Counted from the stretch's first letter, positions 13,001 through 60,008 are shown. The stretch: DNA of 64,000 nucleotides from Anaerolineales bacterium (GCA_026996855.1 JALWJZ010000016.1:567-64566); one strand, 5' to 3'. Notes: generated by a model from the letters alone, not told the origin. Numbers and translations: made by a program.

Positions 13001-13520
13001 GGGCGGCACAAAGCCGCCCCTTTGTGCTGCCACTTCACCTTCACCAGCACCATCCGCACCACGGTGTGGTTTTTGAAAACATCGGTGGCCTCGTCGTACG
13101 CACCTCAGGTGAGCAGGGTGGGCCAGGCGTAGCCGGAAAAGTAGCGGCTTTCATGGCCGCTACTTTTTCCCTATCAGCACCGCCCGCACCACCACGTGGT
13201 TCTTGAAACCGCCCGTGATTTCGTCGTACTGGCCGTAGGTGAGCAGGGTGGGCCAGGCGTAGCCGGAAAAGTAGCGGCTTTCATGGCCGCTACTTTTTCC
13301 CCATCAGCACCGCCCGCACCACCACGTGGTTCTTGAAACCGCCCGTGGCTTCGTCGTACTGGCCGTAGGTGAGCAGGGTGGGCCAGGCGTAGCCGGAAAA
13401 GTAGCAGCTTTCATGGCCGCTACTTTTTCCCCATCAGCACCGCCCGCACCACCACGTGGTTCTTGAAACCGCCCGTGGTTTCGTCGTACTGGCCGCAGGT
13501 GAGCAAACTGGGCCAGGTGT
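13001..13520 (-). repeat. four tandem 130-bp orphan modules, each the last 33 codons of the sortase domain plus stop plus terminator hairpin
   Basis: Exact 130-bp period: ggccaggcgt/ggccaggtgt at 13121, 13251, 13381 and 13511, then aaccaggtgt at 13641 in the intact gene. A fifth unit (13521-13650) is the real 3' end of the 13550-18673 gene. Confidence 0.9.
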
Positions 13521-13549
13521 AGCCGGAAAAGTAGCGGCTTTCATGGCCG

Positions 13550-16500
13550 CTACTTTTTCCCTATCAGCACCGCCCGCACCACCACGTGGTTTTTGAAACC
13601 GCCCGTGGCTTCGTCATATTGCCCACAGGTGAGCAAAGTCAACCAGGTGTAGCCGTCGTCTATCGGCTCCAGGGGCCAGGTGGCATGGGGCGGCACGTAG
13701 CGCACCTGCCGCACCTGGTACTCGTACACCGTGCCGTACACATGCACTCGGATGATGTCGCCCCAGCGCAGGGTGTGAATCTGCGCGAAGGGGCCGGGCA
13801 GGCCCGAAGGCAGCCAGTTGTGCGCGGTGAGCACGCTGTTCCCCTGCCAGCCGGGGAAGGCGGTGTTGGTCATCCAGGCCACATCGGTCAGCCAGGTGAG
13901 GTCCGCGGTGGGCTCGACACCCACGACTGGCGCCTCCACGCCCAGGCGGGGGATTTCCACCCACACCGGTCCCAGGTTCTGGTAAGGCAGCCGCGCCGGC
14001 GCGGCCGGGATGCGGGTCACCCGGCCCGGCGCGAAGCCCGTCTTGGGCAGGGGCGGCGGATAGGCCCGGGTGGGGTCGTCCGGCTCCGGCGTGGTGGGGT
14101 CGTCGGTGAGGGCAGGGGTGTCGTGGTCCACGTTGGCGTCGCCGGAGCCGACGGTGCCATCGCCGTTCTCGTCCCAATGGGCCAGGCCCTGGTTTTCCAC
14201 GTAGGCCGGTGCTCCCTCTACCTCGGTCTGGAAGGAGACGACCAGCGCATGGGCCGCGTCATGGGGATCGGTCACGCCCGGGTCCGGCGCGAGGTCGGCT
14301 TCTACTTCAATGTGTCCCGTCGTTGTATTGTAGGTGCAAACGTGCACCACGGTGGCGCCCTGCCCGGTGCAGGTCAAACTCCCGGGCACGTAGCGGGTGT
14401 TGGCCGGAATGGGGTCCGAAATCTGCACCCGCAAAGTTGTGGCGTTGCTGTTGTTCACCCATATCATTCGCCATATCAGCAGGGGCCAACCGTCATCGTC
14501 CACCGTTTTCCAACTCTCGGGTGGGTCGAAGAGGGTGGTTGCTTGAGCGGTCGCGTAATCGTCTTCGCGTGGGTCCCAGTTTCCCGGTGTGCTATCGGGG
14601 TCGGGTTGGTCGGCCGCGGTGATCTCGGCCACGTTGAGGTGCTCCCCGGCCCGGACCGTGGCCTGGAAGGTCAGGGCAACGCTTTCCCCGGGGTTCAGTC
14701 GGTCCACGGTCCAGCGCAGAATGGGCGCGGCGCTCTCGTCGGGGGTGATGACCGCTCCGGTGCTGCCGGGGTCGCCGCCGATGCTGCCGACGACGTAGGT
14801 GTAACCGTTGGGCAGGCGGTCCTCCACCTGCACCTGGGTGGCGTCGGAAGGCCCGTCGTTGCGCAGGGTGAGGGTGAACGTCACGGTGTCGCCGGGCTCC
14901 GCGGTGGTGGGCGTCACGCGCTTGGTCAGGCTCAGGTCCGCGCTCTGGGCCACCGCGGTGTCTTCGCTGGCGGTGTTGTTGTCCGTGTTCGGGTCGGGGG
15001 TGGTGGCGCTGACCTGGGCGGTGTTGGTCAGGGTGCCGGTGGCGCTGCTGCTCACCTGCACGGTGACCTGGCAACTGGCATGGGCGCCGTTCGCCAGGCT
15101 GCCCACGTTCCAGGTCCAGGTGGCGCCGCTCACGGAGCCACCGCAGGTGTCGCTCTGGTAAGAGACGTCCGCGGGCAGGGTGTCGGTGACGGTAACGCTG
15201 CTGGCATCGCTGGGGCCGTGGTTGGTCACGGTGAGGGCGTAGGTGAGGGTGCTGCCGGCGGTCACGGGGTCGGGGCTATCGGTTTTGGAAATGCTCAGGT
15301 CCGCGGCGGCCTGAATGGTGAGGACGTAGTCCTCCACTTCCCCATCTCGCATGGCCCCTGTGGGAGCCGAAGCGTTCAAGTTGGGGTCGGTGGAAAGGCG
15401 CAGGCGCAGGTAGGTATCGCCGGCCACCAGGCCGGAAAGGCCGCTCCAGGTCAGGGTCACGGTGCCCGCGGTGCCGTTGGGCACGGTCTGGCTCGCGGCC
15501 TCGGCGGGCTCGAAGGTGCCGTCCCGGTCGAAGTCCACCCAGCCCACCAGGGTGGCGTCCCGGCCCGTGTTGTTGGTGACCTGCACATCCAGGCTGTAGG
15601 AGGTCATGCCCTGGTGCAGGGGCGGCAGGGTGCTCACGCCGTCTTCGTCGTCGATGCCCGTTCGGTCGTCGCCGTCCGCGTTGGGGCCGTGGAGCGCGGG
15701 GTTTTCGCTGTCGGGCGGCGCGGCGCCCAGGTGCAGACCGCCCACCACGCCGTGGGCCGGATCGCCATAGCCCGCGGGCGCGTCGCCCCGGTCGCTGGTG
15801 ACCGCAATGTTGGGCCCGAACTCCGAAGTATTGCCGTCCGCGTCGGTGGCCGTGGTGGTGATTTCATCACCCAGACTCAGACCGCTCACGCCGGTAATGG
15901 TGCAGGCGAAGGCCCCGTTGGTCCCCAGAGTCACCGTGCAGGAACCCAGGTACTCGGCGCCCTCGCCGTGGGGCACGCGCTGGCCGTCCCCGGCTTCCAC
16001 CTCGCCGTCTTGGTTCGCGGGGTCGTTGTCGGCCTTGAAGACCTCGAGGGTGAAGGTGCCGCTGAGCCATTGGGCGGCCCGGTTGCTGCCGATGTAGCCC
16101 CACAGGTGCAGATCGGTGCCCACCAGGACCGCAGAGGTTAGGATGGGGTAATCCACCCCCCGGTTGCCCAGGTCGGGGTCCAGCGCGCCGTCGTTGGCCG
16201 TGACTCCGTCCCCCGGAGGTGCACTGGGGCTGCGGTTGGCCAGGTCGATACCCAGGTGGGCGTTGTCGTACACATGGTTTTGAGTCAGGGTGTTGCCGTG
16301 GGCGGCACGGTCTTCGGTGTTCACATAGATGCCCACGGTATTTCCGTACACCAGGTTCTTGCGCACGGTCACGCCCGAGGCGCCCTTGCGAATCATGATG
16401 CCGGCCAGGGCCGCGCCGTAACTGGTATTGTTCTCGATGAGGGTGTTGGTGGGCGGCTGGCCCGCGGAGCGGGAACCCACCTCGATGTTGCTTCCGCCCC

Positions 16501-18673
16501 CGTCGAAACCGCCATCGGTGGTTTGGTTGTACACCAGGTTGTAGCGCACCACGGAGTTGACGCCGTCCATATCGATGCCGTCGTGGGAGTCGGAGCGCCA
16601 GCCGTTGTGGGCCACCTCGTTGTATTCCACCAGCAGGGCGCTGTTGTTGAGGATGCCCAGGATGCCGCTGCGTCCGTTGTAGGCCACCAGGTTGTAGCGG
16701 GCAATCAGGTTGTACCGGCCCACGGGCGGCGGCGAAGAAGGTGAACGTTGCCGGATGCCGAAGTCCTGATTCTTCAACGCGTCGGGGGTGGGTGCGGTGC
16801 CGTCGGCCCGAGGCCCGACAAAGGTGTGTTCCACCACCCGGTCGGTGCCCGAACCGCCGTTGAAGGTGAGCGCGTCGTCCGCGTTGTACACGCTCAGGTG
16901 GCGGAGCACCACGCGAGAGGCGTTCCCGGCCACGGTGAAGGGGTCGCTGTCGTTGGCGTTGATTTCCAACTCTTTGCGCTGGAATTGGGGGAAGGGGACG
17001 GCATCCACGCCCACGGTGCCGCCGCTGCCCACCTGACCGGGGTTGGTGTCGCGCGTGGTGGTGCCATCGTCGTATTCGTAGGCGGTGCCGTCCACGGTGG
17101 TGTCGTGGTCCAGGATGACGGGCAGGCCACCGAGTTGCAGGTCCACCCGCCACCAGGCCCCGCCGCTGCCGCCGGCGTTGGTGCTCACCGTGGGCACGAA
17201 GTGCATGGCGTTGGCCCCGGCGATGGCGTTGGCGTTCTGGACGAACTGGCGCAGGCAGCCCTGGCAGGTGCGATCCGCAGCGGGGTCGTCGTCCCGGTCG
17301 TTCACGTTGGTCACCACGTTGAAGGAGAAACCGAAGTCCAGGCCGCTCACATCGGCGCTGGAAACCACCACCTTGGCGATGTGCTCCGCGCTTTCCAGGG
17401 TGGTGGCATCGTCGGAGGTGCTCCCCCGGCGCCCTCCCATGCAAGGCCCGGCCGAGGTGCGCACGTAAGGGTCGCCCGCACCCAACAGGCCGTCGGGGTT
17501 GGCGCAGTAGGCCCCCGCGGGACCGTAGGTTTGCTCGGCCCACACGTCACCCTGGTCGTAGCCGGTGTTGAAGCCGGCGTTGGGGGCGATGGTTTTGGAA
17601 TCCACCACCAGCCAGTAGGTGGCATTGGGGGCCGCGCCCAGGGCGAAAGAGCCGTCGCTGCCCGTCGTGGTCTGCGCGTGCAGCGGGTCCCCCGCGTCGG
17701 GCTGGCCGTCGCCGTCGTCCTGGAACAGAAGCACCTGCACATTGGGACGACCGATGCCATCGCCCAGGTTCCCATCGCCGTTGGGGTCTTCGTACACCCG
17801 GCCCTGCAGGGCAACCGGCTCGAAGTTGTACAGCACGTCATCCGTGGGACCAAAGGCGATGCGGAGACCGTCCACGAACATGCGCACGTCGCCGTTCCAG
17901 CCGGAGCCCACACCGACTTCCACACCCAGAACATAGGTCCGGCCCTGGCTCAAATCGGGAGGCGTGGGATCGCCCGGCAGGCCCGTTACGGGCCCGGACA
18001 GCCATTCCGGCAGGCTCGTATCGTAGTTCTGGACCGCGCCGGAGGCCGTCCCCGGGCCGGGGTCGCAATCCATGCAATACATCCAGAAATCGGCCTGGCG
18101 CAAATCGATGGTGCGTTGCACCCATACGTCTTCGGGAATGGGGGTAAAGGTGCCCCAATCTTGATAGACCTCTTCGTAAATCAAAAGGCCATAGGTGTCG
18201 TCTTGGGGGTTCGTGGGCGTGTTGCCGTCGTTGTACCAATACAGTTTGAGGGGTGGGTGAAAATGGGAAGCCACCGTGGTGCCGGCCGAGGCGCGGTAGT
18301 ACGCGTAGGCCAGGTGGCTCAGGGTATCCAGCCGCCGACCGGGGAAGTCCACCCCAGGCGTGCCGGGATCTTCCCAAATCAGGCGGAAATCCACCTTGTC
18401 CTGGCCGGGCGTGGTGAAATGCGTGACGAATTCCAGGGAACCCAAAGCGGGTGAAAGGGCGGTGTAGGGCGTGGCCCCGGAAAGGAAGGAGTCGGAATCG
18501 GCCCGTTTGTTGGCCTGGGTCCAGCCATGAGGGTTCGAGGGCGACACCACAATTTGTGTAGGGGCGGAAGCGGGGCGCAGAGGCGGTGTTGGGGCGCTTG
18601 AAACCAGAACGCTTGCGACGCCCAACCACCAGGCTCCAAGGCCCAGCCAGAGCAAAACCGCACGTTTTGCCAT
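13550..18673 (-). CDS. giant secreted surface protein: signal peptide, SdrD/Cna-B-like, parallel beta-helix (PbH1), GEVED, two DUF11 repeats, LPKTG, C-terminal sortase domain
   Basis: MAKRAVLLWLGLGAWWLGVASVLV signal peptide, NLVAYNG..YNEVAHNG..YNLVYNQ..NLVYGNT beta-helix repeats, MRDGEVEDYVL, and DLSISKTDSPDPV../DLSLTKRVTP.. DUF11 repeats. SD is GAGGAGGAGGG. Confidence 0.9.
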   Translation of the reverse strand: MAKRAVLLWLGLGAWWLGVASVLVSSAPTPPLRPASAPTQIVVSPSNPHGWTQANKRADSDSFLSGATPYTALSPALGSLEFVTHFTTPGQDKVDFRLIWEDPGTPGVDFPGRRLDTLSHLAYAYYRASAGTTVASHFHPPLKLYWYNDGNTPTNPQDDTYGLLIYEEVYQDWGTFTPIPEDVWVQRTIDLRQADFWMYCMDCDPGPGTASGAVQNYDTSLPEWLSGPVTGLPGDPTPPDLSQGRTYVLGVEVGVGSGWNGDVRMFVDGLRIAFGPTDDVLYNFEPVALQGRVYEDPNGDGNLGDGIGRPNVQVLLFQDDGDGQPDAGDPLHAQTTTGSDGSFALGAAPNATYWLVVDSKTIAPNAGFNTGYDQGDVWAEQTYGPAGAYCANPDGLLGAGDPYVRTSAGPCMGGRRGSTSDDATTLESAEHIAKVVVSSADVSGLDFGFSFNVVTNVNDRDDDPAADRTCQGCLRQFVQNANAIAGANAMHFVPTVSTNAGGSGGAWWRVDLQLGGLPVILDHDTTVDGTAYEYDDGTTTRDTNPGQVGSGGTVGVDAVPFPQFQRKELEINANDSDPFTVAGNASRVVLRHLSVYNADDALTFNGGSGTDRVVEHTFVGPRADGTAPTPDALKNQDFGIRQRSPSSPPPVGRYNLIARYNLVAYNGRSGILGILNNSALLVEYNEVAHNGWRSDSHDGIDMDGVNSVVRYNLVYNQTTDGGFDGGGSNIEVGSRSAGQPPTNTLIENNTSYGAALAGIMIRKGASGVTVRKNLVYGNTVGIYVNTEDRAAHGNTLTQNHVYDNAHLGIDLANRSPSAPPGDGVTANDGALDPDLGNRGVDYPILTSAVLVGTDLHLWGYIGSNRAAQWLSGTFTLEVFKADNDPANQDGEVEAGDGQRVPHGEGAEYLGSCTVTLGTNGAFACTITGVSGLSLGDEITTTATDADGNTSEFGPNIAVTSDRGDAPAGYGDPAHGVVGGLHLGAAPPDSENPALHGPNADGDDRTGIDDEDGVSTLPPLHQGMTSYSLDVQVTNNTGRDATLVGWVDFDRDGTFEPAEAASQTVPNGTAGTVTLTWSGLSGLVAGDTYLRLRLSTDPNLNASAPTGAMRDGEVEDYVLTIQAAADLSISKTDSPDPVTAGSTLTYALTVTNHGPSDASSVTVTDTLPADVSYQSDTCGGSVSGATWTWNVGSLANGAHASCQVTVQVSSSATGTLTNTAQVSATTPDPNTDNNTASEDTAVAQSADLSLTKRVTPTTAEPGDTVTFTLTLRNDGPSDATQVQVEDRLPNGYTYVVGSIGGDPGSTGAVITPDESAAPILRWTVDRLNPGESVALTFQATVRAGEHLNVAEITAADQPDPDSTPGNWDPREDDYATAQATTLFDPPESWKTVDDDGWPLLIWRMIWVNNSNATTLRVQISDPIPANTRYVPGSLTCTGQGATVVHVCTYNTTTGHIEVEADLAPDPGVTDPHDAAHALVVSFQTEVEGAPAYVENQGLAHWDENGDGTVGSGDANVDHDTPALTDDPTTPEPDDPTRAYPPPLPKTGFAPGRVTRIPAAPARLPYQNLGPVWVEIPRLGVEAPVVGVEPTADLTWLTDVAWMTNTAFPGWQGNSVLTAHNWLPSGLPGPFAQIHTLRWGDIIRVHVYGTVYEYQVRQVRYVPPHATWPLEPIDDGYTWLTLLTCGQYDEATGGFKNHVVVRAVLIGKK
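13553..14035 (-). other. sortase catalytic domain (in cis, last 161 aa of the giant protein)
   Basis: His in NSVLTAHN, TLxTC-type Cys in WLTLLTC (codon 13625-13627), Arg in HVVVRAV. No hydrophobic anchor between LPKTG and the domain. Confidence 0.8.
14036..14050 (-). other. LPXTG sorting motif (LPKTG) inside the giant ORF
   Basis: Reverse strand ctg ccc aag acg ggc, in the context PPLPKTGFAPGRV. Confidence 0.85.
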
Positions 18674-30576: not shown

Positions 30577-30680
30577 GTGGGGATGTGGAATGAATGGGGA
30601 TATGCGAATGAGCGGATATGCGAATGGGCGGATGAGCGAATATGCGAATATGCGGATATGCGAATGGGCGGATGGGTGGA
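30577..30680. repeat. octamer tandem array (about 13 units, T[AG][TG]GCG[AG]A) upstream of ilvC
   Basis: tatgcgaa tgagcgga tatgcgaa tgggcgga tgagcgaa tatgcgaa tatgcgga tatgcgaa tgggcgga tgggtgga. Confidence 0.9.
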
Positions 30681-53765: not shown

Positions 53766-54854
53766 TCATTCCAGTGCGCGGGCAGCCGTGCGCACCATTT
53801 CGCCCAATGCGGTGATAAAGGCTGGGTCGTCGTTCAAAGACTCGGTGCGGCGCACCTGGACGCCCAAAGTGCGGGCCCGTTGTTGCAATTCGATGTCAAT
53901 GTCGTACAGGATTTCCACATGGTCACACACGAATCCAATGGGCACGACCAGGACCTCCCGCACACCCTGCCGGGCCAGGTCTTCGACCAGGTCGCCCACG
54001 TCGGGCCCCAGCCAGGGCACGGCCGAGGCGCCTGCGCTCTGGTAGGCCACATGCCACGCGTCCAGCCCCAGGTGCTCGGCCACCCGGCGCGCGCTTTCCC
54101 GAACCTCCTTGTCATAAGGGTCGCCCTGCTCCACCACCTTTTGAGGCAGGCTGTGCGCGGTGAAGACCACCACAGGCTTACTTCCCTCCCAGGCAGATAG
54201 GGCCTCTTCCACTTTGTGAGCCACAGCCTGGATGAAGCCTGGATAGGTGGACCAACGGGTGATGAAGACGCTGGTCAGCGGTCGGCGGTGGGCCGTGGGC
54301 AGTGGGCGGTCGGTAGTCGGCGGTGGGTAGTCAACAGAAGGCAAAGAGGGGGCATCGCCCTGTGTCCACACTTTTACTTCGCATCCGACCTCAGATTGCT
54401 GACTGCTCGCTGCTGATTGCTCCCAGCCTTCTGCTTGCGTCAAAGGCCGATACCCCTGGGCTTCCAGGGCTTTTTCCAGCGCCTGCCGGTAAGCGCCGAT
54501 GCTCATACGGGAATAATGGGGGGCCATGGGCAGGGCCACAATCCGGCGAAAGCCCTGGTTCAGGATGTCCGGAAGCACTTCGTGGATGTAAGGGTGCCAG
54601 TGGCGCATGCCCACGAAGGTTTTGAAGTGCGGCCCCAGATGTTGGTGCAGCCAGGCCTCCAGCGCCCGGGCCTGGGCCTGGGTGTGCTCCAGCAGGGGGG
54701 ATTTCCCGCCGATGAGGCGGTACCGTTCCCGCACTTCTTCCACCAACTCTTGGGGTGTGGGACGACCGTGGCGCACGTCCAGTAGATAAGGTTTGACATC
54801 GTCCAGGGAAAGGGGACCCCCGTAGGCGAGCAAGAAGACGGCGGTGGGTTCCAT
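53766..54854 (-). CDS. hemH: ferrochelatase (coproporphyrin ferrochelatase type) carrying a ~55-codon repeat-derived insertion
   Basis: VFLLAYGGP..RYRLIGGKSPL..AHSLP..VPIGFVCDHVEILYDID. 362 aa, against the ~310 aa I recall as typical. Confidence 0.9.
   Translation of the reverse strand: MEPTAVFLLAYGGPLSLDDVKPYLLDVRHGRPTPQELVEEVRERYRLIGGKSPLLEHTQAQARALEAWLHQHLGPHFKTFVGMRHWHPYIHEVLPDILNQGFRRIVALPMAPHYSRMSIGAYRQALEKALEAQGYRPLTQAEGWEQSAASSQQSEVGCEVKVWTQGDAPSLPSVDYPPPTTDRPLPTAHRRPLTSVFITRWSTYPGFIQAVAHKVEEALSAWEGSKPVVVFTAHSLPQKVVEQGDPYDKEVRESARRVAEHLGLDAWHVAYQSAGASAVPWLGPDVGDLVEDLARQGVREVLVVPIGFVCDHVEILYDIDIELQQRARTLGVQVRRTESLNDDPAFITALGEMVRTAARALE
54272..54422. repeat. arm-core-arm heptamer element inside hemH
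   Basis: Left arm, 9 units (tggtcag cggtcgg cggtggg ccgtggg cagtggg cggtcgg tagtcgg cggtggg tagtcaa). Then a ~50-nt unique core. Right arm cagattg ctgactg ctcgctg ctgattg. Confidence 0.9.
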
Positions 54855-54873: not shown

Positions 54874-54908
54874 GGATTGGTGGTCAGCCGTCAGCGGACA
54901 GCGGACTG
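54874..54908. repeat. heptamer array (5 units) across the hemE stop and hemE-hemH spacer
   Basis: ggattgg tggtcag ccgtcag cggacag cggactg. Confidence 0.8.
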
Positions 54909-56005
54909 CTTCGCTCATGCACATATTCCACGACAAAGGCCACCTGGTCCGGGTCGGTTTCGGGAAGCACACCGTGGCCCAGGTTGAAGATGTGGCCTGC
55001 CTGGCCTCGGGCTTCTGCAAGCACCGCATCCGCCTGGCGGGCCAGTACCTCCCGTGGGGCCAGCAGGGCCACCGGATCCAGATTCCCCTGGATGGCGTGG
55101 TGGCCTCCAACCGCCTCCCAGGCCGCGCCCAGGGGTACCCGCCAGTCCACGCCGATGACCTCCGCATCCAGGTCATGGAAAAGGGGTAGCAGGCCTGCGG
55201 TGCCGGTGGAAAAGTAAATTCGAGGGACGCCCGTCACTTGCAATCCCCGCAGCAGGGCCTGGACGTGGGGTTTCACATAACGGGCATAGTCCCCAGGACT
55301 CAGGGCACCGGCCCAACTGTCGAAGATTTGCACCGCCTGCGCGCCGGCGTCGATCTGGGCCTTGAGGTAATCCAGCGTGACGCGGACCAGCCGCTTCATG
55401 AGGGCGTCCCAGGCCTGGGGATGGTGGTACATCCAGCGTTTGGTCTCGACGTAATGGCGGGAACTCCCGCCCTCGATGGCATAAGAAGCCACGGTGAAGG
55501 GCGCGCCGGCAAAGCCGATAAGGGGCGTTTGGGGGGCTTCAAGCCGTACCCGGCGCACCGTCTCGAAAACGAAGCCCAGGGCTTCGTGCACGTCCACCAG
55601 GGGGAGGGTTTCCACCCGGTCCGGCGTCAGGCGGGGTTCCAATACCGGGCCGCGCCCTTTCTCAAAACGCAACCTCAGCCCCAGCGCTTCCAGTGGAAGC
55701 AGGATGTCCGCGAAGAGGATGAGGGCATCCACGCCCAGACGCAGGGGAAGCAGCGTCACCTGGGCGGCCAGGTCGGGCTCGCGCATGAGTTCCAGCAGGC
55801 CGTAGCGCTCCCGCAGCGCCCGGTATTCGGGCATGTAACGCCCGGCCTGCCGCATGAACCACACCGGCGTGTAGGGTGTGGGCTGCCGATAGCACGCGGC
55901 GAGGAAGGGGGGAAGGCGGTCGGCGGACAGCGGACGGCGGACGGCGGTCGGCTGTCGGCTGTCAGCGGACGGCGGTCGGCGGTCGGCCGTTGGCGGTTTC
56001 AGCAT
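54884..56005 (-). CDS. hemE: uroporphyrinogen decarboxylase with a repeat-encoded N-terminal extension
   Basis: TPVWFMRQAGRYMPEY..SWAGALSP. The only SD-preceded start (GAGGAGG, ATG at 56005) lies upstream of 30 array-encoded codons. Confidence 0.9.
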   Translation of the reverse strand: MLKPPTADRRPPSADSRQPTAVRRPLSADRLPPFLAACYRQPTPYTPVWFMRQAGRYMPEYRALRERYGLLELMREPDLAAQVTLLPLRLGVDALILFADILLPLEALGLRLRFEKGRGPVLEPRLTPDRVETLPLVDVHEALGFVFETVRRVRLEAPQTPLIGFAGAPFTVASYAIEGGSSRHYVETKRWMYHHPQAWDALMKRLVRVTLDYLKAQIDAGAQAVQIFDSWAGALSPGDYARYVKPHVQALLRGLQVTGVPRIYFSTGTAGLLPLFHDLDAEVIGVDWRVPLGAAWEAVGGHHAIQGNLDPVALLAPREVLARQADAVLAEARGQAGHIFNLGHGVLPETDPDQVAFVVEYVHERSSPLSADG

Positions 56006-56112
56006 TCGTGTTCCTCCTCATGCATTCGCTCACTGCTGATGGCTGACTTGCTGACTGCTGATTGCTCACTGCCGTCTGCTCACCGCTGACCGCTCACTGC
56101 TGACCGCTGACT
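55912..56112. repeat. 13-unit G-rich array, 26-nt core with the hemE SD and ATG, then 12-unit C/T-rich array
   Basis: gtcggcg gacagcg gacggcg .. (55912-56002), and ctcactg ctgatgg ctgactt gctgact gctgatt gctcact .. (56029-56112). Confidence 0.9.
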
Positions 56113-57410
56113 GCCCCAAACGCTTCCCGCGCCGCCTCCAGCGTGCGTTCCAGGTGCTCCTCCTCGTGGGCCAGGGACATGAACGCGGATTCATACTGGG
56201 AGGGCGGGTAATAGACCCCACGGGCGGCCATCTCCCAGAACCAGCGGGCGAAACGCTTCGTGTCGGCCTGGCTCACCTCTTCCCATGTGGTGGGCGCGCG
56301 GTCCAGGAAGAACACGGTGAACATGGTGCCCACGTGCTGCACGGTGACCGGGACGCCCGCCTCTTCCGCCGCCTGCGCCAGGCCCTGGGCCAGCCGTTGG
56401 GTGCGGGCTTCCAGCGTCTCCCATACCCCCGGCTCCCGCAGGGCATCCAACGTGGCGATGCCCGCAGCCATGGCCAGGGGGTTGCCCGAAAGGGTCCCGG
56501 CCTGGTACATGGGTCCTGCCGGGGCCACGTAGCGCATGATGTCTTTGGGGCCGCCGTACGCGCCCACAGGCAGCCCGCCGCCAATGACCTTGCCCAAGGT
56601 GGTGATGTCGGGCCGGACGCCATAGCGCGCCTGCGCGCCGCCCAGGGCCACCCGGAACCCCGTCATGACCTCGTCGAAGATGAGGAGCGCGCCGTAGCGG
56701 TCGCACAGCGCGCGCAGGCCCTCCAGGAAGCCCGGTTGGGGCGGCACCACGCCCATGTTTCCGGCCACCGGTTCCACGATGACCCCCGCGATGTCCTGGC
56801 CATGGGCTTCGAAAAGGGCTTCTACCGCGGCCAGGTCGTTGTAGGGTGCGGTCAGGGTGTCCTGGGTGGTGCCGGGGGTCACGCCGGGGGAATCGGGCAG
56901 GCCCAGGGTGGCCACGCCGGAGCCAGCCCGAACCAGGAGCGCGTCCACGTGGCCGTGGTAGCACCCGACGAACTTGACGACTTTCGTCCGGCCGGTGACC
57001 GCGCGGGCCAGGCGGATGGCGCTCATGGTGGCTTCGGTGCCCGAATTCACGAAGCGCACCATTTCGATGGAAGGCACCATCTCGATGACCCGCTCCGCGA
57101 GGTCGATTTCCAGGCGGGTGGGCGCGCCGTAAGACGTACCCCGTTCCGCAGCCTGCTTCACCGCTTCCACCACTTTGGGGTGGGCATGCCCCAGGATGAG
57201 GGGTCCCCAGGAGAGCACGTAATCGATGTAGCGGTTACCGTCGGCATCCCACAGGTAGGGGCCCCGGGCCTTTTCGATGAACAGGGGGACGCCGCCCACG
57301 GCGCGGAAGGCGCGGGCCGGGGAATTTACCCCACCCGGGATGACTTCCTGGGCCTTCTCGAACAGGCGTCGGGACGTCTCCACGCGTAAAGGTCGGGTCA
57401 GGGCTTCCAT
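56094..57410 (-). CDS. hemL: glutamate-1-semialdehyde 2,1-aminomutase
   Basis: [33 protein letters not shown] at 57410 follows GAAGGAGGAG. Confidence 0.95.
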
Positions 57411-57424
57411 GGTGCTCCTCCTTC

Positions 57425-57466
57425 GGCTGTCCGCCCACTGCTGACTGCTCACCGCTCACTGCCCAA
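57425..57466. repeat. heptamer array (6 units, C-rich type) across the PIN stop and hemL upstream spacer
   Basis: ggctgtc cgcccac tgctgac tgctcac cgctcac tgcccaa. Confidence 0.8.
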
Positions 57467-57940
57467 CACTGTCTCCAGGTGAAAGTCCTCGGCGAAGGGG
57501 TTGACGAAATGCACGCCTTCGATGGTGCTGCCGATAGCGAAGTCCTCGGTGAAGACCAGGGGGATTTGGTGCATCCGGGCCACGGCCCAGATTTGGGCGT
57601 CCCAGTAGGAAAAGCGGTACCGCCGCACCCCGCGTATAGCCTCCAGCACCACGGTTTCGGTAACGGGCAGCACCCGGAACGTGCGGGCCAGGTCCTCCAC
57701 CAAAGCCTGGGCCTGTTCGGGCGAGAGAGCAGGCCGGAGTTTCCGGGTGACCGTGTTGAAAAATTCGCCCAGAATCTGCGTGCTGATGATGCCCAGGCCA
57801 TGCTGTACCAGGCCTTCCAACACTTGCAAGGCACGGGCCTGCTTCTCTGGCTCGGAGCGGTCGTAGGCATACACCAGGACGTTGGTATCCAGGAAGACAT
57901 TGTTCCACTTATTTGCGGGGCCAGCGAAGACGTTCTTCAT
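57449..57940 (-). CDS. PIN-domain toxin (VapC-like)
   Basis: [37 protein letters not shown]. Confidence 0.75.
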
Positions 57941-58187
57941 AGAGCTCCTCCCTGGTCCAGGTTCGTCCTCCGGGCACGGGACCTTGGCTCATCCACCATT
58001 CGGCGAAGGCTTTGAGCCGTTGCCAGGCTTCCTGGCGTTCCCGTTCCTCCAGCGCCTGGCGGAGATACAAATCCAGCGCCCGGCGGATGAGTTCGGCTTC
58101 GGAGACCTGAAGCAGCCGGGAAAGGGTCTTCAACCGCTGCTCCTGGTGGGGTTCTAGATAGATTTGCTTGCGCACCATTCGGGCCAT
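57909..58187 (-). CDS. ribbon-helix-helix (CopG/VapB-like) antitoxin
   Basis: KQIYLEPHQEQRLKTLSRLLQVSEAELIRRALDLYL. SD is GGAGGTG. Overlaps the PIN start. Confidence 0.7.
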   Translation of the reverse strand: MARMVRKQIYLEPHQEQRLKTLSRLLQVSEAELIRRALDLYLRQALEERERQEAWQRLKAFAEWWMSQGPVPGGRTWTREELYEERLRWPRK

Positions 58188-59607: not shown

Positions 59608-59639
59608 AAAATTTGTGCAGATGGCATGCGAGGTGGGGT

Positions 59640-60008
59640 ATGGGGCGCATGCGGTCGCATCGTGATTTGGAAGTGTGGAAGCGTTCGGCCCAATTCGCGC
59701 AGCGGATTTACCAGGTGACCGCCCACTTCCCCGACCAGGAGAAATACAACCTGACTGCGCAACTGCGGCGGGCCAGCACGTCGATTCCCGCCAACATCGC
59801 CAAAGGCCATGGACGTCGCACCGAGGGCGCGTTTGCTTTGCACCTGGATATTGCCTTGGGTTCGCTGGCGGAAATCGACACGTTCCTGTACCTGGCGCAC
59901 CATTTGGGCTATCTCTCCCAAGATGTTTACGAAGAATTGCTGAACGAACTCACCATTATCCGTCGCATGCTGTACCGCCTCTACAACCGCGTCCAATCTA
60001 ACCGCTGA
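59640..60008 (+). CDS. four-helix-bundle protein (TIGR02436 / 23S rRNA intervening-sequence protein family, Avd-like)
   Basis: RDLEVWKRSAQFAQRIYQVTAHFPDQEKYNLTAQLRRASTSIPANIAKGHGR..ALGSLAEIDTFLYLA. The start could be 59649. Confidence 0.85.
   Translation: MGRMRSHRDLEVWKRSAQFAQRIYQVTAHFPDQEKYNLTAQLRRASTSIPANIAKGHGRRTEGAFALHLDIALGSLAEIDTFLYLAHHLGYLSQDVYEELLNELTIIRRMLYRLYNRVQSNR

Follow-up and report, generated by a model that had tools for sequence, protein, structure and literature searches.

A heptanucleotide array at the 5' end of hemE in an Anaerolineales bacterium and the genome-wide repeat family to which it belongs

In the haem cluster of an uncultured Anaerolineales bacterium, the Shine-Dalgarno (SD) sequence and ATG of hemE lie in a short core between two arrays of degenerate heptanucleotide units, the second of which runs from directly behind the ATG to the edge of the conserved UroD domain. 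Two questions are raised by this layout: where translation of the gene begins, and whether the flanking arrays control it through the structure of the mRNA. From the evidence set out below we infer that the second array is actually translated as a UroD tail and that a dedicated regulatory role is absent. The explanation we consider probable is a canonical SD-driven start within the core, with arrays that are tolerated, possibly as selfish or neutral sequence, and that are bounded by selection on the ribosome-binding site (RBS) and on the reading frame.

The hemL-hemE junction

The window, meaning the whole stretch of 64,000 nucleotides analyzed here (C16:567-64566), comes from a 2.56-Mb MAG of 119 contigs that is 94.8% complete and has a GC content of 62.5%; same-genus relatives are on deposit as "Anaerolineales bacterium" MAGs. 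A haem cluster on the minus strand comprises hemA, a PIN/ribbon-helix-helix (RHH) pair, hemL, hemE and hemH (Table 1). The UroD ORF is matched by Pfam URO-D (PF01208; E 8.8e-118, residues 33-364) and by TIGR01464 (hemE) over residues 34-364, with 407 bits against a cut-off of 303 and model positions 2-338 of 338, and it is single-copy in the genome (one match). The match of TIGR00713 to hemL covers residues 27-445 of 452 (E 1.4e-194); as it begins only at residue 27 and an internal Met is present at residue 15, the true start of hemL is uncertain.

Table 1. Positions of hemE, hemL, the junction arrays and related features (window coordinates)
Feature	Position	Strand	Details
hemE (UroD)	54884-56005	minus	373 aa; domain start at residue 33-34 (~55909)
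hemL (glutamate-1-semialdehyde 2,1-aminomutase)	56094-57452	minus	TIGR00713
Arm 1, heptamer array of ~12 units	56029-56112	minus	TRF 56028-56114, period 7, 12.3 copies
26-nt non-repeat core	56003-56028	minus	sequence
Arm 2, heptamer array of ~12-13 units	55912-56002	minus	TRF 55911-55996, 11-12 copies
PF05635 genes	59613-60008		others on C111, C64, C69, C95 and C108

Arm 1 spans the tail of hemL as well as the spacer that separates it from hemE and is built, on the mRNA strand, from units of the types AGTCAGC, GGTCAGC and AGTGAGC. A reading made earlier from the sequence alone (the sequence-only reading) held that this arm supplies the hemL C-terminus, and both the ORF and the sequence agree, since hemL ends in AVSGQQ followed by TGA (56096-56094) and the last six codons and the stop lie within the array. 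Arm 2, a C-rich array with no stop in any frame, has units of the types CGCCGAC, AGCCGAC and CGCCGTC and encodes UroD from residue 2 to about residue 31-33, with the peptide period of seven residues (P-T/S-A-D-R/S-R-P/Q) that the same reading had described. Its count of 12 units for arm 1 stands, while the 13 units it gave to arm 2 include two degenerate end units and TRF finds about 12. Self-identity at a lag of seven is 0.79 in arm 2 (0.34 ± 0.05 when shuffled) and 0.64 in arm 1 (0.27 ± 0.05), and the maximum reached in 2000 shuffles was 0.51 and 0.44, respectively. Both arms have the period-7, head-to-tail organization of heptanucleotide tandem-array families (LSSR/STRR-like).

Within the core, the SD GAGGAGG (56019-56013) is followed by a 7-nt spacer and the hemE ATG (56005-56003), so that the start signals do sit between two arrays as first read, and an in-frame TGA (56020-56018), 12 nt upstream of the ATG, closes the hemE frame. 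The core was also considered as a repeated element, and this was rejected: when the locus was compared with its own genome by BLAST, matches were confined to the arms and never included the core, which has no second copy there.

The hemE start codon and its array-encoded tail

The ATG at 56005 had been proposed as the only plausible start of hemE, and our analysis supports this. The frame is closed just upstream, there is no in-frame ATG, GTG or TTG between this ATG and the conserved PVW motif, and no GGAG, GAGG or AGGA occurs within the C-rich arm 2. Public gene calls give an identical 373-aa protein with the same start. The alternative, that a non-canonical codon near FLAAC is the real UroD start and that the upstream ATG and array form an untranslated leader, draws on the usual position of UroD starts, three to eight residues before F-L-x-A-C, and on the poor conservation of the tail sequence. 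Among 120 homologues the commonest N-terminus is M-x-x-R-F-L-x-A-C, and the N-tail of the UroD described here falls in the top few per cent by length. We give this alternative almost no credence, as it would have to account for a perfect SD 7 nt before the ATG that is conserved in four genomes, for a stretch from 56002 to the domain that is devoid of ATG, GTG, TTG and SD-like motifs, for a frame maintained across a 42-nt indel with mostly synonymous early substitutions, and for the N-tails of more distant UroDs (P0003 and P0017, with 78% and 64% identity), which also end in LPPFLAAC.

Comparison with the UroD N-termini of relatives, a check that the sequence-only reading had itself put forward, found nine close sequences in frame and the SD-ATG block conserved. 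The DNA of the locus was compared within the genus in four genomes (this one, G001, G002 and G003), and the arms of P0002, P0125, P0003 and P0017, relatives from ENA/Logan, were compared at the protein level only; a metagenome scan found no close relatives, its best match being 57% identical. A 16-nt SD-ATG block, AGGAGGAACACGAATG, is identical in all four genomes, and both arms vary around it. By species, arm 1 and arm 2 have 12/13, ~10/13 and ~8/7 units, so that unit number differs between close relatives (~12, ~10 or ~8 in arm 1; ~13 or ~7 in arm 2) and the two lengths change independently. The in-gene array of G001 and G003 is shorter by exactly 42 nt, which is six units or 14 codons, and the N-tail is 19 or 33 residues long with the frame kept in 9/9 close sequences, a conservation that goes back to one length-change event, would arise by chance one time in three and is weak when taken alone. 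In codons 2-7, four of the five between-species substitutions are synonymous, third-position changes. Against P0002 (97% identical), differences affect 7 of 33 tail residues and 5 of 325 domain residues (Fisher p 1.7e-5), and on this comparison the tail sequence is barely constrained. The AlphaFold2 model has pLDDT below 50 at residues 1-25 and above 90 in the barrel (mean 89.3) and becomes confident from residue 30, and the N-terminal tail is accordingly predicted to be disordered and floppy. Taken together, the comparison with relatives bears out the claim that arm 2 is translated, very probably as a tail of UroD.

Length alleles among close relatives also bring to mind a contingency locus, in which slippage of arm 2 by numbers of units that are not multiples of three would switch hemE off and on. 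The precedent is neuO of E. coli K1 (CUS-3 prophage), whose poly-psi motif is a translated heptanucleotide VNTR right after the start codon (PMC3046976). The geometry is shared, as in both genes 7-nt units follow the start, are translated as 7-residue heptads if in frame and form a tail outside the catalytic fold (PMC3046976), and one relative has another UroD C-tail as the result of a changed frame in the 3' array of hemE. However, the neuO units are perfect AAGACTC repeats, present in 2-93 copies, which undergo high-frequency slippage and on/off switching (PMC3046976), whereas hemE is a housekeeping gene in single copy, with degenerate units, alleles that are all in frame (nine sequences, two lengths) and a second, inverted array upstream of the RBS. 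A long tract of identical units of the neuO type is absent from arm 2, whose unit list shows at most two identical neighbors, so that slippage should be rare, and MutS and MutL are both present in the genome. We see very little chance that hemE is switched in this way.

A possible origin for the canonical start in the core is suggested by a sister genus, g2 (G009 and G016), which also has paired heptamer arrays in the hemL-hemE spacer. The g2 units are wholly different (GAGGATA with CCATCTT; GTAGTCG with CGACTAC), the RBS (AAGGAG or CAGGAG) and ATG come after arm 2, and UroD begins MSRFLDAC. When the two genera are aligned without gaps, the g2 ATG falls opposite CTT (Leu31) of our genome and the g2 SD opposite array units, and a 9-mer, CTTCCCCCC, is common to our genome and G009. 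Either the old SD-ATG may have been removed by a 21-nt deletion, as the shared 9-mer would suggest, or the old ATG may now be the CTT. Since N-tails ending in LPPFLAAC also occur in the more distant UroDs, loss of the proximal start would be older than the genus.

In the sequence of events that we favor, the domain-proximal RBS, which relatives possess, would have been lost at hemE, the canonical SD and ATG within the core would have taken over initiation, and arm 2, being open in all frames, would have been absorbed into the hemE ORF. Its product would be a Pro/Arg/Ala/Asp tail, 19 or 33 residues long, that is disordered and evolves fast. Selection would maintain the SD-ATG island and the reading frame, not the tail sequence or the arm lengths, and because the frame is under selection only multiples of three units would survive as length changes. 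Such a relocation of the start is what we infer from the sequence comparisons. It would make hemE a clean case, documented by comparison, of a housekeeping enzyme gaining coding sequence from a microsatellite, in which the start was shifted upstream and a disordered tail, changing length in 21-nt steps, arose from one arm of an intergenic pair.

Folding of the arms and the genome-wide array family

In many bacteria, no class of long simple repeat is more abundant than heptanucleotide arrays. The genome analyzed here has 216 period-7-type regions (12.4 kb), with 154 clean arrays in 132 clusters. More than half of them lie between genes, with 93 arrays fully intergenic and a further 24 mostly so, even though genes make up about 84% of the genome by home-made, crude gene calls; other arrays fall within ORFs or at their ends. 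The units vary widely in sequence, and arrays reach about 25 units. A recurring junction layout on the sense strand runs from a stop codon through arm 1 (of types such as GTCAGCA, GATAGCG and GTTAGCC), a short core and a C/A-rich arm 2 (CCGACCG, CCAACGG and CCACTGA types) to GGAGG and ATG after about 20 nt, and in 60 clusters an SD-preceded start follows the last array at a median of 20 nt (IQR 15-25). The hemE arrays are one copy of this genome-wide family of paired inverted arrays, which is STRR/LSSR-like, and hemE has the sole strong start found inside any heptamer cluster of the genome. Array-encoded N-termini behind weaker starts are found at an argH-like gene (C23:15682), an aroE-like gene (C15:2075) and C69:5909, while in most array-overlapping ORFs a strong SD-ATG right behind the array is the better start. 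For annotation this means that starts placed upstream of arrays are usually wrong, and that hemE is the exception in which the upstream start appears to be right. Loss of mismatch repair was considered as a cause of the repeat abundance and rejected, as MutS and MutL are present.

The sequence-only reading had further raised the possibility that the two arms, if paired, hold the RBS in the loop and so make hemE translation dependent on RNA structure. Of the 84 positions in the best register, 47 (56%) are pairable in the mRNA and 61 (73%) on the antisense strand; 45 positions are Watson-Crick, and wobble-only positions number 16 on the plus (antisense) strand and two on the mRNA. The minimum free energy (MFE) is -90.7 kcal/mol for the mRNA (z -2.6 against shuffles) and -133.5 kcal/mol for the antisense strand (z -7.9), with about 32 and about 71 expected arm-arm pairs, respectively. 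The same asymmetry is present in G001 and G003, and it is general for the family: of the 75 clusters between co-directional genes, 57 have their better fold on the antisense strand (p 7e-6), the median difference being 9.8 kcal/mol, and in correspondence with this most arrays are C+A-rich on the sense strand. The thermodynamic prediction gives the SD a probability of 0.30 of being unpaired; in the MFE structure it is not exposed in a loop, and part of it pairs with arm 1. The predicted energy for opening positions -20 to +15 around the AUG is 13.2 kcal/mol, against 9.6 ± 2.0 kcal/mol with shuffled arms (~3.6 higher), and a modest effect of the arms on hemE translation is possible on this model.

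A hairpin that gates the RBS in or near its loop in the hemL-hemE mRNA could in principle respond to temperature, to hemL ribosome traffic or to hemE ribosomes that melt arm 2. Arm complementarity beyond chance is consistent with it, as are the raised opening energy, the presence of both arms in 4/4 same-genus genomes and the retention of paired arrays at the same junction in g2. We nevertheless consider it unlikely: the wobble positions favor the wrong strand, the asymmetry is a property of the whole family, arm lengths change across species with no matching change in the partner, and the RBS lies outside the arm pair both in the 60 other clusters and at the same junction of g2. The coupling once proposed for hemE thus finds little support in a weak mRNA fold. 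In g2 the sense and antisense folds are equal (-115.5 and -116.2, and -94.2 and -93.9 kcal/mol). Compensatory changes between the arms were not observed in the four same-genus genomes, which are too few for a covariation test. The junction is without an Rfam family match, giving only sub-threshold matches to plant miRNA precursor models, which amount to a generic long hairpin and are better on the plus strand. Searches of the hemL-hemE junction for a sigma-70-like promoter, an intrinsic terminator or an antisense promoter found none, and a role of the junction hairpin as a terminator was rejected on the lack of an intrinsic terminator.

The paired arrays might instead be selected as a class, as operon punctuation or protein-binding sites, with hemE as a member whose RBS is unusually placed. 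They could be REP-like hairpins for mRNA stabilization or processing, or sites of the S1, Csp or CsrA type as proposed for TAACTGA repeats, and a post-transcriptional role for heptamer repeats located directly upstream of starts has been suggested by MacGregor 2015 (PMC4679880). This would fit the concentration of arrays at co-directional junctions, where they end a median of 20 nt before the next start, their consistent transcription polarity (of 92 arrays, 66 have a C+A-rich sense strand; p 4e-5) and the persistence of the hemL-hemE position across two genera with the units turned over. However, a candidate binding protein or processing site was not found in this analysis, the diversity of units argues against a single sequence-specific binder, arrays within ORFs and at ORF ends are expected from expansion wherever it is tolerated, and neutral growth bounded by selection would equally fill a spacer up to the RBS. 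We regard such a class-wide function as decidedly unlikely.

The arrangement at hemE looks like a local side effect of this gene-junction repeat family and not like a dedicated RNA switch. Its hairpin potential would be inherited from the family and would be weak in the hemE mRNA. Several observations count against the side-effect reading: the arms are reverse-complementary, a feature that simple slippage leaves unexplained, the mRNA fold is still somewhat stronger than that of shuffled sequence, and the arms raise the predicted opening energy of the ribosome site. The persistence of paired arrays in two genera, although the units have turned over completely, could also mean that the structure itself is selected. 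Taken furthest, the junction arrays would be a selected RNA element in which ribosomes load from the hairpin loop and hemE output is tied to its breathing or to ribosome traffic; we rate this as a slim chance, but if true it would describe a repeat-built translational operator common to dozens of operon junctions. The wider question, posed by more than 100 inverted heptamer-array pairs of fixed polarity at operon junctions, belongs to the family and not to the hemE locus.

Known heptanucleotide repeats and other repeats of the genome

Among the known systems closest to the family are the directly repeated TAACTGA heptamers found in marine Beggiatoaceae and in some Cyanobacteria and Bacteroidetes (MacGregor 2015, PMC4679880). 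Those arrays are likewise numerous, dispersed and mostly intergenic, end a few nucleotides before starts, in some cases overlap stop codons and in some encode the beginnings or ends of proteins (PMC4679880). The TAACTGA family has one dominant unit in sets of 2-6 copies that are mostly direct, and canonical SDs are rare (PMC4679880). The present family, in contrast, has many unit variants, up to ~25 units, usually in inverted pairs, and a strong GGAGG, and its host is a member of the Chloroflexota, a group not among the TAACTGA hosts listed in PMC4679880. Cyanobacterial heptanucleotide LSSRs/STRRs, as summarized in that source, show a genome-wide period-7 excess of unknown function and presumably grew by slippage (Mrazek et al. 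2007, via PMC4679880). Unlike them, the arrays described here have high-GC units and are systematically paired into inverted arms. The STRR units are reportedly those of Mazel and co-workers from 1990, and some unit types of the present family resemble them (CAGTGGT and AACAGTG types), a likeness at the level of unit type. In the literature library searched, no paper describing arrays of this kind in Chloroflexota turned up.

Other hairpin-forming repeats, the Rickettsia palindromic elements and intragenic REP/MITE-like elements, are mobile units of fixed length that ORFs tolerate at structurally permissive sites, where they are translated. An extra translated peptide is common to these and to hemE, but at hemE translation takes in just one arm of a tandem-array pair, with the RBS located between the two. 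Within the genome, six genes for PF05635 (23S rRNA intervening-sequence protein) were found, most with heptamer arrays on both flanks, and the hemE pair resembles such an arm pair with no gene inside. The hemE core differs from these cassettes in being 26 nt long, unique in the genome and the carrier of a host RBS. No consistent link between the strand of the PF05635 gene and the better-folding strand emerged from duplex energies, which are dominated by flank length.

Short heptamer arrays were also observed elsewhere in the haem cluster. One, at 57436-57462, lies across the overlap of the PIN-toxin stop and the start of the longest hemL ORF; the PIN-domain and RHH pair itself (57449-58187), between hemA and hemL, is likely a toxin-antitoxin module. 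Another (54892-54906, TRF) encodes the UroD C-terminus ..SPLSADG at the 3' end of hemE, and UroD of P0125, which is >90% identical, ends ..SGQRTVSSQQ, indicating a frame change in this 3' array. In hemH, heptamer arrays at 54273-54331 lie inside the ferrochelatase ORF, in a segment that divides the Pfam and TIGR matches in two. The g2 arrays at the hemL-hemE junction (L014 in G009 and L016 in G016) precede the UroD W-x-MRQAGR motif by ~60-270 nt. In G002 (L199, G002:C248:1-1200), the order of arm 1, core, arm 2 and hemE is preceded by an amidohydrolase/CYTH-like ORF and not by hemL; this contig ends inside hemE in a palindromic stretch and is probably chimeric, and no inference was built on it.

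Two repeats of other periods were noted in the window. A 130-nt unit present 4.5 times with 92% match (13045-13635) copies the 3' end of the coding sequence for a surface protein of 1707 aa (ORF 13550-18673, minus strand) that looks sortase-like at its C-terminus. A period-8 micro-repeat family with units of the types GCGAATAT and GCGGATGA occurs at 30578-30680 and genome-wide, and the genome-wide TRF count is ~99 octamer arrays with 3.5 or more copies.
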